From a virus (Duplodnaviria; Heunggongvirae; Uroviricota; Caudoviricetes), in IMG/VR virus record IMGVR_UViG_2547132273_000019: DNA of 4,947 nucleotides; one strand, written 5' to 3'. Shown in pieces: positions 1-4,947 of the stretch. Positions within the stretch are counted from its first letter, which is position 1, and every line of letters starts with the position of its first letter. The notes below the pieces were generated by a model, which was not told where the DNA came from, searched no databases, and saw only the letters and a program-made list of their open reading frames with translations. The position numbers were made by a program, and so were the translations under genes.

Positions 1-83
1 ATCCATGCTGACCTCATTTCCCCTTAACGCTGGGGTAGCGGAACTGTTTGCTGAGAACACCGTGCGGTGTGTTGATGCAAATA

Positions 84-112
84 AGATTAGCCATGGCTAA
101 CATATAGGTCAA
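84..112 (-). promoter_or_regulatory. Leftward sigma70-like promoter (P_L analogue) with an operator palindrome in its spacer
   Basis: Read on the minus strand: -35 TTGACC (plus 107-112), 17-nt spacer, -10 TAATCT (plus 84-89). The perfect 14-bp palindrome TTAGCCATGGCTAA (87-100) overlaps the spacer and -10. Transcription would run toward position 1. Confidence 0.45.
87..100. promoter_or_regulatory. Operator candidate (O_L-like): perfect palindrome TTAGCCATGGCTAA, form TTAGC-N4-GCTAA
   Basis: Perfect 14-bp palindrome. The same half-sites and 4-bp spacing recur at 583-596 and 633-646 on the other side of the repressor gene. Confidence 0.55.
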
Positions 113-122
113 GTGATTTTGT

Positions 123-138
123 ATGTTATGGCTAACAT
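123..138. promoter_or_regulatory. Second left-side inverted repeat ATGTTA-tggc-TAACAT (auxiliary operator candidate)
   Basis: 6-bp arms ATGTTA/TAACAT. It shares the 11-mer ATGGCTAACAT with 93-103. It lies just upstream of the predicted leftward -35. Confidence 0.35.
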
Positions 139-172
139 GATTGATGTGGTAAAAAATAACTCATTGATGATG

Positions 173-580
173 TTATCTTTTATTTGTCCGCTGACGGGCT
201 TTTAGTAATTCTTCAAAGAGTTTATTGAAGTTTTTTACTCGAGCTCGCATTTCGGCGAGCTGGGTATCCTGTTCTGATTCTGGCAGTGCATTAAACAGCT
301 CAAGGAGCTCTAGTTCTTTGGGGGATAAGGCAACTGGCTTCTCAACAGGTGGTGTTGGTTGCTTGTCTTCATCGCCAAATAGAATCCATGTTGGTGAGCA
401 TTGCAATACTTTGCTGAGGGCAAAAAGGTTCTTCCCTGTAGGTTCACTATCATCCCGTTCCCATTGTGATACAGACACATGGGAGATTTTCAGGGCTTTA
501 GCAAGAGACCTTTGGGTGTGTTTGAGGTTTTTCCGACGATACCTAATGCGTTCGCCGATAGTTAAATTTTTTGTTTCCAT
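173..580 (-). CDS. Phage repressor, XRE-family HTH (CI-like), short form without a LexA/S24-type autocleavage domain
   Basis: 135-aa ORF. N-terminal HTH signature TQRSLAKALKISHVSVSQWERDDSEPTGKNLFALSKVLQCSPTWILFG, then a Pro-rich linker and a ~45-aa helical tail. It is divergent from a cro-like gene and flanked on both sides by palindromic operators. ATG at 580-578, stop TAA at 175-173. Confidence 0.85.
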   Translation of the reverse strand: METKNLTIGERIRYRRKNLKHTQRSLAKALKISHVSVSQWERDDSEPTGKNLFALSKVLQCSPTWILFGDEDKQPTPPVEKPVALSPKELELLELFNALPESEQDTQLAEMRARVKNFNKLFEELLKARQRTNKR

Positions 581-582
581 AG

Positions 583-596
583 TTAGCTAATGCTAA
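583..596. promoter_or_regulatory. Operator candidate (O_R-like): TTAGC-taat-GCTAA
   Basis: 14-bp inverted repeat with the same half-sites and 4-bp spacer as 87-100. It abuts the repressor start codon, so it could serve autoregulation or a P_RM-like promoter. Confidence 0.5.
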
Positions 597-602
597 ATCG
601 TA

Positions 603-631
603 TTGACTATGTTTTTGTTAACATCTATTTT
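603..631 (+). promoter_or_regulatory. Rightward sigma70-like promoter (P_R analogue) for the cro-like operon
   Basis: -35 TTGACT (603-608), 17-nt spacer, -10 TATTTT (626-631). The operator 633-646 covers the predicted transcription start. A Shine-Dalgarno AAGGTG (652-657) sits 6 nt before the ATG at 664. Confidence 0.5.
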
Positions 632-632
632 G

Positions 633-646
633 TTAGTCATAACTAA
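633..646. promoter_or_regulatory. Operator candidate (O_R-like): TTAGT-cata-ACTAA, within the longer inverted repeat TTGTTAGT-cata-ACTAACAA (630-649)
   Basis: 8-bp arms over a 20-bp span. The core matches the TTAGY-N4-RCTAA pattern of 87-100 and 583-596. It overlaps the predicted P_R start site. Confidence 0.5.
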
Positions 647-663
647 CAATAAAGGTGTTTTAA

Positions 664-894
664 ATGCTTAAAACTGACGCTCTTTTGTATTTCGGTTCAA
701 AAACAAAACTTGCACAAGCAGCAGGTATTCGTTTGGCTTCGCTTTATAGCTGGAAAGGGGATTTAGTTCCCGAAGGTCGCGCGATGCGTCTACAGGAGGC
801 ATCTGGCGGGGAGCTTCAGTATGATCCCAAAGTTTATGATGAATATCGTAAGACGAAGCGGGCGGGGCGGTTGAACAATGAAAATCACTCCTGA
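664..894 (+). CDS. Cro/YdaS-family HTH DNA-binding protein (Cro analogue)
   Basis: 76 aa. Motif YFGSKTKLAQAAGIRLASLYSWKGDLVPEGRAMRLQEASGGELQYD is typical of Cro/YdaS-type HTH proteins. It is the first gene of the rightward operon, divergent from the repressor, with a good Shine-Dalgarno sequence. Confidence 0.8.
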   Translation: MLKTDALLYFGSKTKLAQAAGIRLASLYSWKGDLVPEGRAMRLQEASGGELQYDPKVYDEYRKTKRAGRLNNENHS

Positions 895-1399
895 ACAGGC
901 TCGTGAGGCTCTGGATGCCTGGATATGTCGACCAGGAATGACACAGGAGCAGGCGACGATATTAATCACTGAAGCATTCTGGGCTTTGAAAGAGCGCCCG
1001 AACATCGATGTTCAGCGTGTCACAGATGAAGGTGGCGCGGTTGATCAGCGAGCGCTTGGCGTTAATCGAGTGAAGATATTCGAACGCTGGAAGGCTATCG
1101 ACACCAGGGATAAGCGTGAAAAGTTCAGGGCGCTAGTGCCTGCGATTATGGAGGCTATCCGGATTAGTGATTTCAGGTTGTATCGTGAGATCAGTGATGG
1201 AAAAAGTATTACGTACATGATCGCCGGGTTAAATAAAGAATATGGCGATGTGGTGGAATCCGGACTGCTTTTTGCAGATCCTGCCGTTGTAGATCGTGAA
1301 ACTGACGAACTTATAGAAAAAGCAATTGCTTTCAAGCTTGCGTATCGACAGCAATACCAACAAAAAGCTGGATGGAATTATGAGTCTTCTTTTTGCTGA
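878..1399 (+). CDS. YdaT-like early regulatory protein (CII-position analogue); function tentative
   Basis: 173-aa ORF. Its start overlaps the cro-like stop by 17 nt (ATG 878, upstream stop 892-894), suggesting translational coupling. It occupies the position of cII/ydaT in Rac-like prophages. The family assignment is from recollection of YdaT-like features (MKI start, IFERW, ALVPAI) and was not searched. Confidence 0.55.
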   Translation: MKITPEQAREALDAWICRPGMTQEQATILITEAFWALKERPNIDVQRVTDEGGAVDQRALGVNRVKIFERWKAIDTRDKREKFRALVPAIMEAIRISDFRLYREISDGKSITYMIAGLNKEYGDVVESGLLFADPAVVDRETDELIEKAIAFKLAYRQQYQQKAGWNYESSFC

Positions 1400-2385: not shown

Positions 2386-2787
2386 GTGGCAAAAGTTTTT
2401 ACACAAGAAGAGCGGGAAAAAATTAAAGGGCAGGTGGTGGAACTCGTGCGCCAGAGCGGTCGTGAGACGTTACGGCAACTGGAAGCTAAAACAGGTGCGA
2501 CTAGATATCTGATGAGCGTTCTTGCTAGAGAGCTGGTAGCCAGTGGCGATGTATACAACTCCGGCTACGGGTTATTCCCGTCTGAACAGGCGCGTAAGGA
2601 CTGGCAAAACGCCCGCAAAAAACTCTCGAGGGCAAAGGTGAAGAAACCTGCTGTGGTTGATCCGGACCTTATCTGGTCATTACCTGACGGAGAAATACGC
2701 CGCTACGACAGTCGTCTAAACATAATCTGCCGCGAGTGCCGGAAGAGTGAAGTTATGCAGCGCATACTGGCATTTTATCAGGGATAA
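2386..2787 (+). CDS. Hypothetical phage protein (133 aa), basic, possible winged-helix fold
   Basis: GTG start at 2386 with a strong Shine-Dalgarno AAGGGGG (2375-2381). It lies 40 nt after the replication gene stop and is probably co-transcribed. No recognisable catalytic motif. Stop TAA at 2785-2787. Confidence 0.6.
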   Translation: MAKVFTQEEREKIKGQVVELVRQSGRETLRQLEAKTGATRYLMSVLARELVASGDVYNSGYGLFPSEQARKDWQNARKKLSRAKVKKPAVVDPDLIWSLPDGEIRRYDSRLNIICRECRKSEVMQRILAFYQG

Positions 2788-2884
2788 TGTTAGGTATTTT
2801 AGACGTTACTAGATTAAAAAGCATTAGTTCAGGAGTGAATTGACATTCTCATTTTTCATGGCACAGGGTAGATCTGGCGTGGTT

Positions 2885-2908
2885 GTCCGCTTTGTGCCAA
2901 CAGCGGAC
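2885..2908. repeat. Inverted repeat GTCCGCT-N10-AGCGGAC (hairpin or protein-binding site), copy 1
   Basis: 7-bp perfect arms with a 10-nt spacer (ttgtgccaac). No U-tract follows, so it is not a canonical intrinsic terminator. The same arms and spacing recur at 4587-4609. Confidence 0.5.
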
Positions 2909-3074
2909 GTTACTAACGAAACTGTGAGTTAAAAACGGGAGCTGGTCACCTCCATCCCGCGAAATGGAATTCAAAAATGCCCTCATGTACGGTACTTCTA
3001 CTCTGATGTGAGCATTTTCGTGGATTTTTTCGAGCCACTCCAACGAATGATTACATTCAGTTTCGGGCACTAAA

Positions 3075-3090
3075 ACGTCATAACGTCATA
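3075..3090. repeat. Tandem direct repeat ACGTCATA x2
   Basis: Sequence aacgtcataacgtcata in the 540-bp spacer. Function unknown. Confidence 0.4.
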
Positions 3091-3276
3091 AATCCGCAAG
3101 TTGAGGAGTAGCGATCAGCCAATTGGTTAAAAAACAGCTTTAATTCCCTTTTTCAAGCAGGCTCCTTGTCGCACGTCTGGTGCATCCAATTCATTTCAGT
3201 TACCCTGATGCCATACTGGCACGGACTAGCTCTCTTAATTGGCGCTGGTTTGTTAACCTTGTCCGCTGTCGGGTCT

Positions 3277-3307
3277 TTGTAAGTTGTAATTCCTAAACTA
3301 GCATAAT
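3277..3307 (+). promoter_or_regulatory. Candidate own promoter for the RelA/SpoT-domain gene
   Basis: -35-like TTGTAA (3277-3282), about 19 nt spacer, -10-like CATAAT (3302-3307), then Shine-Dalgarno TAAGG (3315-3319) and ATG 3329. The spacer is slightly long; this is a weak call. Confidence 0.3.
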
Positions 3308-3328
3308 TTTATTATAAGGCCTCTTACT

Positions 3329-4354
3329 ATGCACATTTTATCTGTTTCAAAAAAGGAAGTTGGAAGAGCTGGGGATAGATTAGTTTCTCAGTTTGGTACA
3401 GGTGAAAAATATAAAGAGGAAGATGTACAAATTCTTCATGAGTGGAGGATGTTGCATTTATATCCTTTAAGTAAAATACAATTTTATATGGAAAGAGAGG
3501 CTATTTCCTTAAACAAAAATGCGTTACTATCCTCTAGAATTAAGAGGATGCCTTCCATTGTTACTAAGCTTTCTAGATTTCCTGATATGAAGTTAAATAA
3601 GATGCAGGATCTTGGTGGGTGCCGGGCTATTTTAAATAATCTGGATCAAGTGTATGATTTAGTTAATAAAATAAAATCATCTAAATTCTCACATGAACTA
3701 GTTAGAATGGATGATTACATGATAGACGTGAAAGATTCTGGTTATAGAAGCTTTCATATGGTCTATTCATTCCAAAATAAAAAATTTCCATCTTTAAATG
3801 GGTTGCGCATTGAAATGCAAATAAGAACAGCTATTCAACATAGCTGGGCTACAGCAGTTGAAATGGTTGGTTTGTTTCGAAAGGAATCATTGAAATCTGG
3901 TTTTGGTGATGCAAGATGGCTTAGGTTTTTTGAATTGGTATCAGAGCTTTTTTATAAACTTGAGTATGAAAAAGAACCATCTGGGAGTTATATAAAAATA
4001 TCAGAAGAATTAAGTTATTTATCCGTCGAGTTGAATGTTTTCGATATATTAGCTGCTTACAATGCCGTTGTTAGCCATATTGAGGGTAGCAAAAAATATG
4101 ATAAAGGACTTTGCATAATTGTTGTTGATACCATAAAGCGGAATATAAATATAAAGAGCTTCGAAAATCACAATCATGCGAAGGCGGCAGAAGCTTATGT
4201 CGAGTCTGAAAAATACTGCGCGGAAAATAAAGGCTGTGAAGTGGCTATGGTTTCTGTTAGTTCAATTAGTGAATTAAAAAATGCATATCCTGCTTACTTT
4301 TTAGATACGAAAACTTTTTTAAATTATCTCAGTAGGTATGTTTTTATAAAATAA
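3329..4354 (+). CDS. RelA/SpoT-domain nucleotide pyrophosphokinase (small alarmone synthetase-like) with a C-terminal extension; candidate toxSAS or fused toxin-antitoxin (CapRel-like) defence protein
   Basis: 341 aa. Synthetase-fold motifs in order: RIKRMPSIVTKLSR (R-x-K-x3-S-I-x2-K), QDLGGCRAIL, DDYMIDVKDSGYRSFHMVY (compare NGYQSIHTVV in RelA) and EMQIRTAIQHSWA (compare EIQIRT...H). About 115-150 residues follow the SAS core. Hand counts of sample 60-nt lines give about 23-30% G+C inside the gene against about 53% in the replication gene. Confidence 0.85.
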   Translation: MHILSVSKKEVGRAGDRLVSQFGTGEKYKEEDVQILHEWRMLHLYPLSKIQFYMEREAISLNKNALLSSRIKRMPSIVTKLSRFPDMKLNKMQDLGGCRAILNNLDQVYDLVNKIKSSKFSHELVRMDDYMIDVKDSGYRSFHMVYSFQNKKFPSLNGLRIEMQIRTAIQHSWATAVEMVGLFRKESLKSGFGDARWLRFFELVSELFYKLEYEKEPSGSYIKISEELSYLSVELNVFDILAAYNAVVSHIEGSKKYDKGLCIIVVDTIKRNINIKSFENHNHAKAAEAYVESEKYCAENKGCEVAMVSVSSISELKNAYPAYFLDTKTFLNYLSRYVFIK

Positions 4355-4586
4355 AAAATGTTTTCTGGAGTGGTCTGAATTCTACTAACTTAGTTTTTTC
4401 AGACCGCTTCTGACCACAATGGCCTGTGAGGTTCTGCTGCTAGTCAACATAAAATAACAAAGCCGGCAGGTGGTGGTTGTTGTAAAGTTATTCAATGACA
4501 TTCATGGAGGCTTAAGCGAATTATTTGTCCCTGGTCGGTATGGTGGCAACAGCTTGTTGCGAGAATTTGGCTAATTTGGACTGACT

Positions 4587-4609
4587 TCCGCTCCTTGCTC
4601 AAAGCGGAC
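4587..4609. repeat. Inverted repeat TCCGCT-N10-AGCGGAC, copy 2
   Basis: 6-bp arms plus a trailing C, 10-nt spacer (ccttgctcaa). Same arm sequence and spacing as 2885-2908. The two copies bracket the RelA/SpoT-domain gene. Confidence 0.5.
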
Positions 4610-4721
4610 TAGAAGGTTAGCTTGTGTCGGACTTTGCGTATTAAAAGAAGTGCTGGTGGTGACTAGTGGTTGAGCCCCATTTCCACAGAAAAAATCAGAG
4701 AAACTATACCCAATAGTTGTA

Positions 4722-4750: not shown

Positions 4751-4787
4751 CATCAGGACTGGTGTACGTCCAATACAGGAGGTTGTG

Positions 4788-4877
4788 GTGCTGGTTCTCA
4801 AATGTGCGCTGGCTATTACGGCTGTAATGGCGATTTATTGTCTTGCTATTGTTCTTATGGATCGCCTTTCTGACTGA
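4788..4877 (+). CDS. Candidate small hydrophobic membrane peptide (29 aa)
   Basis: GTG at 4788 lies 6 nt after AGGAGG (4776-4781). Hand translation gives (M)LVLKCALAITAVMAIYCLAIVLMDRLSD, a single predicted transmembrane helix with a charged tail; stop TGA at 4875-4877. It overlaps the track's 67-aa ORF (4670-4873) in another frame; which frame is expressed is unresolved. Confidence 0.3.
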   Translation: MLVLKCALAITAVMAIYCLAIVLMDRLSD

Positions 4878-4947
4878 TTTCATATTGGCGAGGTAAAGGT
4901 AGTTAAGTAGAATGGCTGCGGGTGCTTGAGGCTATCTGCCTCGGGCA

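Follow-up and report, generated by a model that had tools for sequence, protein, structure and literature searches.

Organisation of the locus

The window, a 4,947-nt stretch of viral DNA analysed here at its full length, carries a RelA/SpoT-domain gene bracketed by two matching inverted repeats in untranslated DNA on either side of it. To the left lies a DUF977 gene (2386-2787, plus strand; Pfam DUF977, 5e-28), which is annotated in related prophages and is the last conserved backbone gene before the variable slot. To the right, the window ends within the start of the hokD/sok locus (4920-4947, plus strand), a conserved backbone element recognised by a partial Rfam sok match cut by the window end and by hokD annotated downstream in ERP001. 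The segment between the repeats (2909-4585, plus strand) consists of a conserved 420-nt leader, the RelA/SpoT-domain gene at 3329-4354 (Pfam RelA_SpoT, 4e-18; PADLOC candidate defence family PDC-S33, 5e-119) and a 231-nt tail, and its GC content is low (0.36 in the near-identical copy at locus L053). This cargo is present in 43 of 5426 complete E. coli genomes.

The original prediction of two inverted repeats sharing arms and a 10-nt spacing is confirmed. The left repeat (2885-2908) pairs GTCCGCT with AGCGGAC across ttgtgccaac in a 7-bp stem, whereas the right one, placed at 4587-4609, pairs TCCGCT with AGCGGA across ccttgctcaa in a 6-bp stem, because the base at 4586 is T rather than G; the full 24-bp element is therefore 4586-4609. 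The pattern TCCGCT-N(4-16)-AGCGGA occurs exactly twice in the window, while 0 of 200 dinucleotide-preserving shuffles gave two matches, and the elements are conserved at the same two positions in more than 100 related loci. Although short hairpins are common in 5 kb of DNA, a coincidence of arms and spacing can thus be regarded as refuted. GTCCGCT occurs five times against 0.28 expected, three of these copies belonging to the two elements. The remaining copies, at 186 (inside the repressor gene) and at 3261 (not conserved in a second copy of the cargo), were considered as further half-sites but look like chance.

Site architecture and cargo exchange

Logos of 45 distinct left (L) and 71 distinct right (R) sites show conserved arms at positions 1-7 and 18-24, a conserved asymmetric centre at 10-15, and weakly conserved, y/r-biased positions at 8-9 and 16-17. 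Each element therefore reads as a 9-bp arm (GTCCGCTyy), a 6-bp centre and a 9-bp inverted arm (rrAGCGGAC), which is the layout of a tyrosine-recombinase core site, with two inverted arms around a 6-8-bp asymmetric central region. In contrast to the earlier view that the arms are conserved while the centres differ, the centres are not free to differ: the L centre is GTGCCA and the R centre T(C/T)GCTC. The family consensus of the latter, TCGCTC, has the reverse complement GAGCGA, which resembles the L centre, so that R is inverted relative to L. The window sites fit the consensus at 14/14 and 13/14 arm positions, the R site reading TTCCGCTcc, TTGCTC and aaAGCGGAC.

The elements are not tied to the RelA/SpoT gene. 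In 136 related prophage loci the same left flank is followed by 25 different cargos, with homology each time breaking inside the left element and resuming inside the right one. In 128 of 131 loci GTCCGCTttGTGCCA is invariant, while the two following bases and the right arm vary with cargo (AGCGGAC, AGCAGAC, AGCGGAA, AGCTGTC, GGCGGAC and others) and are constant within a cargo type. In the L site of the window, the left arm and centre accordingly go with the prophage backbone, and ‘ac’ plus the right arm with the cargo. On the other side, the right flank of 13 cargo types starts at TCGCTCAAAGCGGAC while the left arm changes with cargo; here the left arm and ‘cc’ go with the cargo and ‘aa’ and the right arm with the backbone, an assignment that leaves out the centre, whose T at the second position is private to this lineage.

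Three cargos are each found in two contexts. The RelA/SpoT cargo recurs, 94.5% identical, in an unrelated backbone (locus L230), where homology covers only window positions 2883-4609: the L230 copy shares ‘acAGCGGAC’ and what follows on the left, and on the right it shares ttggactgacTTCCGCTcc and differs after the centre. The other two are PD-T7-1 (loci L001 and L006) and a 379-aa cargo (loci L065 and L030). In the two informative cases the L centre goes with the backbone (GTGCCA versus GTGCAA, and GTGCCA versus GTGCCT) and the bases after it go with the cargo, which places the exchange point at the centre/arm border. Whether the motif travels with the cargo gene had been proposed in advance as a test, and the outcome was positive, although the elements are generic to a cassette system rather than specific to this gene.

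Traces of further sites may flank the slot. The 16 nt at 4610-4625 (tagaaggttagcttgt) resemble the 15-18-nt spacers (..ggttagctt..) that separate R and L sites in cassette arrays, as seen in an alignment of 22 distinct junction modules. Beyond this spacer, 4626-4649 (GTCGGAC, tttgcgtatt, AAAAGAA) may tentatively be a decayed L site, its position matching that of L in R-spacer-L modules, but only five of seven left-arm bases are kept. Likewise, 2843-2866 (ACATTCT, catttttcat, GGCACAG), 18 nt upstream of the L site, aligns with R sites of junction modules and may be a decayed R site, yet only 13 of 24 bases match the consensus, with many C-to-T differences. Both are weak matches. K-12 relBE was considered as the cassette of this slot and rejected, as K-12 Qin is rearranged: only window positions 1-1157 align, and the only L and R sites there flank flxA in inverted order.

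The possibility that the repeats act as RNA stem-loops stabilising, processing or terminating transcripts, or as operators for a regulator of the cargo gene, is very unlikely, and neither is supported. Both repeats fold better than most shuffles (z = -3.15 and -1.96), but as single-stranded DNA the stems are weak (-8.4 and -5.2 kcal/mol), no T-run follows them, a terminator scan does not call them, and Rfam returned no match at either site. Compensatory covariation is absent between the arms, and one-sided changes far outnumber compensated ones (for example C.A 16 times against T.A once at one R pair), as expected for half-sites read by a protein, although the site detector required similarity to the arm consensus, which slightly disfavours doubly changed pairs. 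Cargo genes lie on either strand, the same elements flank 25 unrelated cargos, and they also occur in chromosomal and plasmid arrays without homology to this prophage backbone. Nor do they behave as REP/BIME-like dispersed repeats: a junction query finds 1-3 places per genome in 809 of 5426 genomes, there are two sites in 26 kb of ERP001, and every site examined in related loci lay between cargo segments.

A small tyrosine recombinase and the proposed cassette system

Some cargo arrays, and hundreds of genomes, carry a roughly 200-aa tyrosine recombinase, although no such gene lies in the window. The 202-aa Phage_integrase-family protein, with HxxR and GH..Y motifs visible in its sequence, occurs in 924 of 5426 complete E. 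coli genomes (about 17%), and its Pfam catalytic domain spans residues 37-186, leaving no room for a separate N-terminal DNA-binding domain. An R-type site lies about 56 nt upstream of its start, and a GC hairpin plus the L half-site TGTGCCA-rr-AGCGGAC follows its stop. This half-site motif was found after the stop in 22 of 80 loci fetched by protein similarity alone, against 2 of about 400 control segments. R-spacer-L pairs separate successive cargos and recur 2-4 times per 12 kb in Buttiauxella, Pectobacterium, Pantoea, Phytobacter, Klebsiella, Erwinia and E. coli CFT073; 173 kb contain 56 strict sites against 0 in shuffles, and 49 of the 56 are co-oriented with the recombinase gene. The protein, an example of which is WP_001305361.1 of E. 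coli CFT073, carries only generic names in databases, and a sequence search against solved structures found no match.

Taken together, the repeats are most likely double-stranded recombination sites of a system that inserts, deletes and exchanges gene cassettes, a reading that can be held with reasonable though not full confidence. The original interpretation is thus partly supported: of its suggestions, recombination boundaries of a mobile cassette and a layout suited to a dimeric protein-binding site are supported, whereas operators and RNA stems are not. In this view the slot between the DUF977 gene and hokD of a Qin-like prophage holds one cassette, the RelA/SpoT-domain candidate defence gene, and the two sites are related but not interchangeable. 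The small recombinase would recombine L with L and R with R: an L x L event would insert or delete a unit of cargo, R site, spacer and L site, and a following R x R event would remove the old cargo, together replacing one cargo by another. Sequence comparison demonstrates the site architecture, the breakpoints inside the sites, the presence of the same cargo in different backbones and the association with the recombinase; that this enzyme binds the arms, cuts at the borders of the centre and catalyses the exchange, and that exchange is site-specific rather than homology-driven, is inferred, the link between enzyme and sites being by association alone, without biochemical or genetic evidence. 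It should also be noted that arms of 7-9 bp are short for a tyrosine recombinase.

An alternative, unlikely but not negligible, is that the sites are merely short conserved anchors at which cargo is exchanged by homologous or phage-encoded (Red/RecT-like) recombination without a dedicated enzyme. Junctions do lie within identical stretches of up to about 17 nt, the same cargo is linked to three different left-flank haplotypes, which ordinary homologous recombination in the flank would also produce, and the window has no recombinase gene. This reading, however, does not explain the 9-6-9 inverted-arm layout with two distinct centres, the oriented pairing of R and L with a 15-18-nt spacer, the position of a tyrosine recombinase gene between an R site and an L half-site across distant taxa, or the co-orientation of sites with that gene. 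Less likely still is recognition of folded single strands, as in integron attC sites, either of each hairpin alone or of an R-spacer-L junction folded into one long imperfect hairpin. The self-complementary arms, the closeness of R to the reverse complement of L, the arrays beside a tyrosine recombinase, and the retention of the centre by the backbone in the informative cases, as would happen with a single-strand exchange resolved by replication, are compatible with it. Against it stand the lack of compensatory covariation within sites or across junctions, the strongly conserved loop sequences, the low score of the recombinase against integron-integrase models, and cargo genes on both strands.

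If the cassette reading holds, it provides a concrete mechanism by which defence and other accessory genes are swapped at a prophage hotspot usually described only as a ‘variable region’. It also defines cassette boundaries to the base, making unknown cargos in this slot candidate defence genes by position; 25 cargo types are seen here, and most of the cargo proteins scanned match no known family. It would add a third natural cassette system beside integrons and dif modules, present in E. coli pathogens, and a small recombinase with two 24-bp heterospecific sites would be a compact tool for cassette exchange. It is possible, though somewhat less likely than not, that the repeats are the visible edge of an undescribed platform widespread in Proteobacteria, which would build arrays of 1-6-kb cassettes and move them among prophages, plasmids and genomic islands, examples including the defence slot of Qin-like E. 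coli prophages and an iron-uptake cluster in the CFT073 pathogenicity island. Full-text searches, including searches for the site sequences themselves, found no description of these sites or of this recombinase as a cassette enzyme, within a literature that excluded most subscription journals and hence without proof of novelty.

Relation to known cassette and recombination systems

The proposed system resembles integrons and Acinetobacter dif modules but is a member of neither. In Acinetobacter pdif/dif modules (PMC6449649, PMC13141974), discrete accessory modules on plasmids, including toxin-antitoxin and resistance genes, are likewise bounded by short XerC/XerD-type tyrosine-recombinase core sites (arm, 6-bp centre, arm) in inverted relative orientation, lack a transposase, carry genes in either orientation and are found in different backbones with homology ending at the sites. 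The sites described here are 24 bp rather than 28 bp, their arms (GTCCGCT/AGCGGAC) have no evident resemblance to the E. coli dif sequence, and adjacent cargos are separated by two sites plus a 15-18-nt spacer rather than by one shared site. A dedicated recombinase is encoded in the arrays, so that the system need not rely on host XerC/XerD, and the hosts are Enterobacterales prophages, islands and plasmids, with relatives in other Proteobacteria.

Integrons, including sedentary integrons that store defence cassettes (bioRxiv 10.1101/2024.07.02.601686), similarly combine a tyrosine recombinase gene, a special site adjoining it and an array of cassettes bounded by imperfect palindromes; arrays also exist without the recombinase, like CALINs, and the cargo is rich in anti-phage genes. 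However, the 202-aa recombinase scores only 17 bits against NCBIfam integron-integrase models with cut-offs of 265 and 435 and is not an IntI-type integrase with its characteristic extra domain. No GTTRRRY consensus follows the sites, and sequence is conserved without the structural covariation expected of folded attC. Cassettes are 1-6 kb with genes on either strand, the RelA/SpoT cassette carries a conserved 420-nt leader of its own, and the recombinase gene is co-oriented with the sites.

The enzyme is similar in size, at about 200 aa, to FimB/FimE-type tyrosine recombinases (tyrosine-type DNA invertases), which likewise leave no room for a separate N-terminal core-binding domain and also have short DNA half-sites, and shows weak NCBIfam similarity to them (2e-6), but its scores are far below the family cut-offs (27 against 222 bits), and the Fim enzymes invert one promoter segment between 9-bp repeats, whereas the present sites bound exchangeable cargo in arrays. 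T4-type PeSL elements (promoter-early stem-loops), short repeated motifs that bracket novel ORFs in hyperplastic regions of phage genomes, are also thought to promote shuffling; they are regulatory motifs (terminator plus promoter) that act through homologous recombination, are not known to be associated with a recombinase, and differ in sequence and layout. Recombinase-mediated cassette exchange with heterospecific lox/FRT sites shares the arrangement of two related but incompatible sites around a cargo, in which paired like-with-like recombination swaps the cargo and leaves the flanks intact; that method is an engineered use of Cre or Flp, while the arrangement described here is natural and inferred from comparative data only.

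Genomic context and the inverted repeats

The window represents the early-right region of a Qin/CP-933O-like E. coli prophage and contains, in order, a repressor gene (173-580, minus strand), a cro-like gene (664-894), a YdaT/cII-like gene (878-1399), an O-like replication gene, a DUF977 gene (2386-2787; Pfam 5e-28), a low-GC RelA/SpoT-domain gene (3329-4354; Pfam 4e-18; PADLOC candidate family PDC-S33, 5e-119) and the start of the hokD/sok locus at 4920. Five tandem 23-nt repeats (CATCrGGTCAAAATG...) at 1724-1839 lie inside the O-like gene and are typical origin iterons of lambdoid phages. The sok assignment rests on a partial match on the plus strand (4920-4947) to positions 1-28 of the Rfam model RF01794, cut off by the window end, while hokD is annotated just downstream in the identical locus of E. 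coli ERP001. Between the right inverted repeat described below and the hokD/sok start, a conserved small ORF of 29 aa (4788-4877, plus strand; 30 aa from the upstream GTG at 4785), VLVLKCALAITAVMAIYCLAIVLMDRLSD, encodes a very hydrophobic peptide and is preceded by an AGGAGG ribosome-binding site at 4777-4782. Ten peptide variants of this ORF in related loci differ mostly by conservative changes, which suggests a real small membrane protein.

The original prediction described two inverted repeats with the same arms and spacing, at 2885-2908 and 4587-4609, and this observation was confirmed, although the right element is better described as the 24-mer 4586-4609, whose first base is T rather than G. 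The pattern TCCGCT-N(4-16)-AGCGGA occurs twice in the window and in none of 200 shuffles. Two further stretches, 184-203 (TTGTCCGCTGACGGGCTTTT) and 3259-3279 (TTGTCCGCTGTCGGGTCTTT), match at 17 of 20 positions and contain the arm heptamer GTCCGCT, but the first lies inside the repressor gene and the second is not conserved in another copy of the RelA/SpoT cargo (GCTCGCT there), so that these are probably due to chance. As single-stranded DNA the stems of the two repeats are weak, at -8.4 and -5.2 kcal/mol, no T-run follows either repeat, a terminator scan does not call them, and Rfam has no match at either site.

Cargo exchange at the prophage slot

The repeats sit exactly at the edges of a variable slot. 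Phage mEp460_ev081 is homologous to the window up to just after the left repeat, and homology resumes exactly at the right repeat, with a different gene on the other strand in between. A scan of viral contigs for the left repeat returned 92 loci, in which at least 17 different sequences follow within 0-3 nt after AGCGGAC, and in most of which the right flank is found 1.0-5.8 kb downstream. The conserved right flank begins inside the right repeat, at TCGCTCAA-AGCGGAC, whereas the left arm of that repeat changes with the cargo but stays GTCCGCT-like. In a second scan, anchored only in the left flank and thus not biased by the repeat, 128 of 131 loci keep GTCCGCTttGTGCCA invariant, while the next two bases and the right arm vary with the cargo (AGCGGAC, AGCAGAC, AGCGGAA, AGCTGTC, GGCGGAC and others). 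In all, 136 loci with this left flank carry 25 distinct cargo starts, and within a cargo type the two variable bases and the right arm are constant, even when the left-flank haplotype differs. Each repeat is therefore half backbone and half cargo, with the join at the 6-bp centre.

Whether the motif travels with the cargo gene had been proposed as a test, and it does. Locus L230 carries the same RelA/SpoT cargo at 94.5% identity in an unrelated backbone, and its homology to the window covers 2883-4583 and 4566-4609 only, that is, from repeat to repeat. The shared sequences are 'acAGCGGAC gttactaacg...' and '...ttggactgac TTCCGCTcc', whereas the outer arm and centre of the left site (caGTGCCT versus ttGTGCCA) and the part of the right site from its centre outward (TCGCTC at AGCAGAC versus TTGCTC aa AGCGGAC) are different. 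The 420-nt leader between the left site and the RelA/SpoT start codon (2909-3328) is about 94-95% identical in L230 and holds no convincing ORF; it may carry the promoter or a regulatory or antitoxin RNA for this toxin-like enzyme. The L230 copy also holds an extra 1.5 kb with a 290-aa gene on the other strand, bracketed by an 18-bp direct repeat (L230 3965-3982 and 5495-5512; window 4566-4583), so either L230 gained an insertion or the window lost a segment between the repeats. Two other cargos behave in the same way as the RelA/SpoT cargo: PD-T7-1 follows the prophage left site directly in locus L001 but an internal site in locus L006, and a 379-aa cargo follows the prophage left site in locus L065 but a recombinase-adjacent half-site in locus L030.

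Site architecture and an associated small recombinase

Alignment of 45 distinct left-type (L) and 71 distinct right-type (R) 24-mers, collected with a detector that uses the consensus, shows that positions 1-7 and 18-24 (the arms) and 10-15 (the centre) are conserved. Positions 8-9 are mostly pyrimidines and weakly conserved, and positions 16-17 are mostly purines in L sites, while in R sites position 16 is mostly A and position 17 is free. The L centre is GTGCCA, and the R centre is TCGCTC, whose reverse complement GAGCGA resembles the L centre; R is thus an inverted, related but distinct version of L. This 9+6+9 layout is that of a tyrosine-recombinase core site, and two different centres would make L and R heterospecific. 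Across distinct sites, one-sided arm changes far outnumber compensated ones: for R pair 4-21, for example, there are C.A 16, T.G 9 and T.A 1. Fisher tests show no consistent excess of double changes, as 12 of 14 pairs are non-significant and two are nominal (p = 0.02-0.03 before correction), and the same holds for a hypothetical long hairpin in which R pairs with the neighbouring L, tested on 22 junctions. The arms are therefore conserved as sequence, as expected for protein half-sites on duplex DNA, which argues against RNA stems and against attC-like folded substrates.

Some cargo arrays in this same prophage slot (loci L006, L044, L058, L066 and L030, with a remnant in L065) contain a 202-aa Phage_integrase-family protein with visible HxxR and GH..Y motifs. 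Its Pfam catalytic domain spans residues 37-186, leaving no room for a separate core-binding domain, and it scores far below the Xer, integron-integrase and Fim-type models; databases give it only generic names. The sites around its gene follow a fixed pattern, in which an R-type site with a degenerate outer arm lies about 56 nt upstream of the start, and a GC hairpin and the L half-site TGTGCCArrAGCGGAC come right after the stop, followed by cargo. In most of the recombinase loci L097-L176 this hairpin lies in the first 30-70 nt after the stop codon, directly preceding the L half-site, and differs in sequence between taxa while the pairing is kept (for example AGGGCTGC..GCAGCCCT and GCGACGG..CCGTCGC); it could be a terminator or part of the site.

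A genome scan with the protein alone returned at least 600 stretches, of which at least 547 encode a relative, and 80 loci were kept. The half-site motif follows the stop codon in 22 of these 80 loci, including loci with roughly 60% identical proteins from Pseudomonas, Stutzerimonas and Vreelandella, and appears in 2 of about 400 control segments. In the 15 enterobacterial loci, R-(15-18 nt)-L pairs recur 2-4 times per 12 kb and separate 0.7-4-kb cargo segments; these loci hold 56 strict sites in 173 kb, against none in shuffles, and 49 of the 56 are co-oriented with the recombinase gene. The gene is present in 924 of 5426 complete E. coli genomes. A junction query finds 1-3 places per genome in 809 genomes, none of them annotated, which makes this a low-copy element and not a REP-like repeat.

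The cassettes are not limited to defence genes, nor the sites to one slot. In the E. coli CFT073 island (locus L225, 14765-20508) a TonB-dependent receptor plus ABC-transporter cluster of about 5.7 kb lies between an L site and an R site, in the same array as the small recombinase. In E. coli K-12 MG1655 Qin (locus L226, about 4005 and 4996) flxA is flanked by an L-type and an R-type site in inverted order relative to the window's backbone, while the rest of the slot is rearranged and relBE lies next to hokD. A different phage region, near tail-fibre and LexA-like genes (locus L067, around 1265-2010), has a decayed R site, a spacer and an L site with arms GTCTGCT/AGCAGAC, followed by a 134-aa ORF and a perfect R-type site, so that the cassette sites also occur in another prophage slot.

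Proposed mechanism and relation to known cassette systems

In the window, the right site is followed by a 16-nt spacer (tagaaggttagcttgt) that resembles array spacers and then by an L-like remnant at 4626-4649, and an R-like remnant at 2843-2866 lies eighteen nt before the left site. Although both remnants are weak, the slot thus looks like one cassette between two old junction modules, and L006 shows the same slot holding three cassettes plus the recombinase. The mechanism proposed here is inferred: L x L recombination would insert or delete a unit made of cargo, R site, spacer and L site, R x R recombination would remove a neighbouring cargo, and the pair of events would exchange cargos while leaving the flanks intact. 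This model reproduces the R-spacer-L periodicity of the arrays, the hybrid make-up of both sites in the prophage, and the L030/L065 and L006/L001 relationships. In the two informative comparisons the L centre stays with the backbone, which places the exchange point between positions 15 and 16-17. The window itself has no recombinase, so any activity here would need one supplied in trans.

While the site layout, the breakpoints and the proximity of the recombinase gene emerge directly from sequence comparison, the action of this enzyme on these sites is inferred from their association alone. Junctions lie in short identical stretches, so homology-driven exchange cannot be excluded for individual events. 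No description of the system was found in the literature searched, which was incomplete, and the site-specific recombination reading is held here with fair confidence. The interpretation offered in the original prediction is supported in part: a recombination boundary or dimeric binding site is supported, whereas an operator and an RNA stem are not. Cassette exchange as such is already known from integrons and dif modules, and the system described here works, as inferred, like the exchange in either of them, but it fails the criteria for membership of both.
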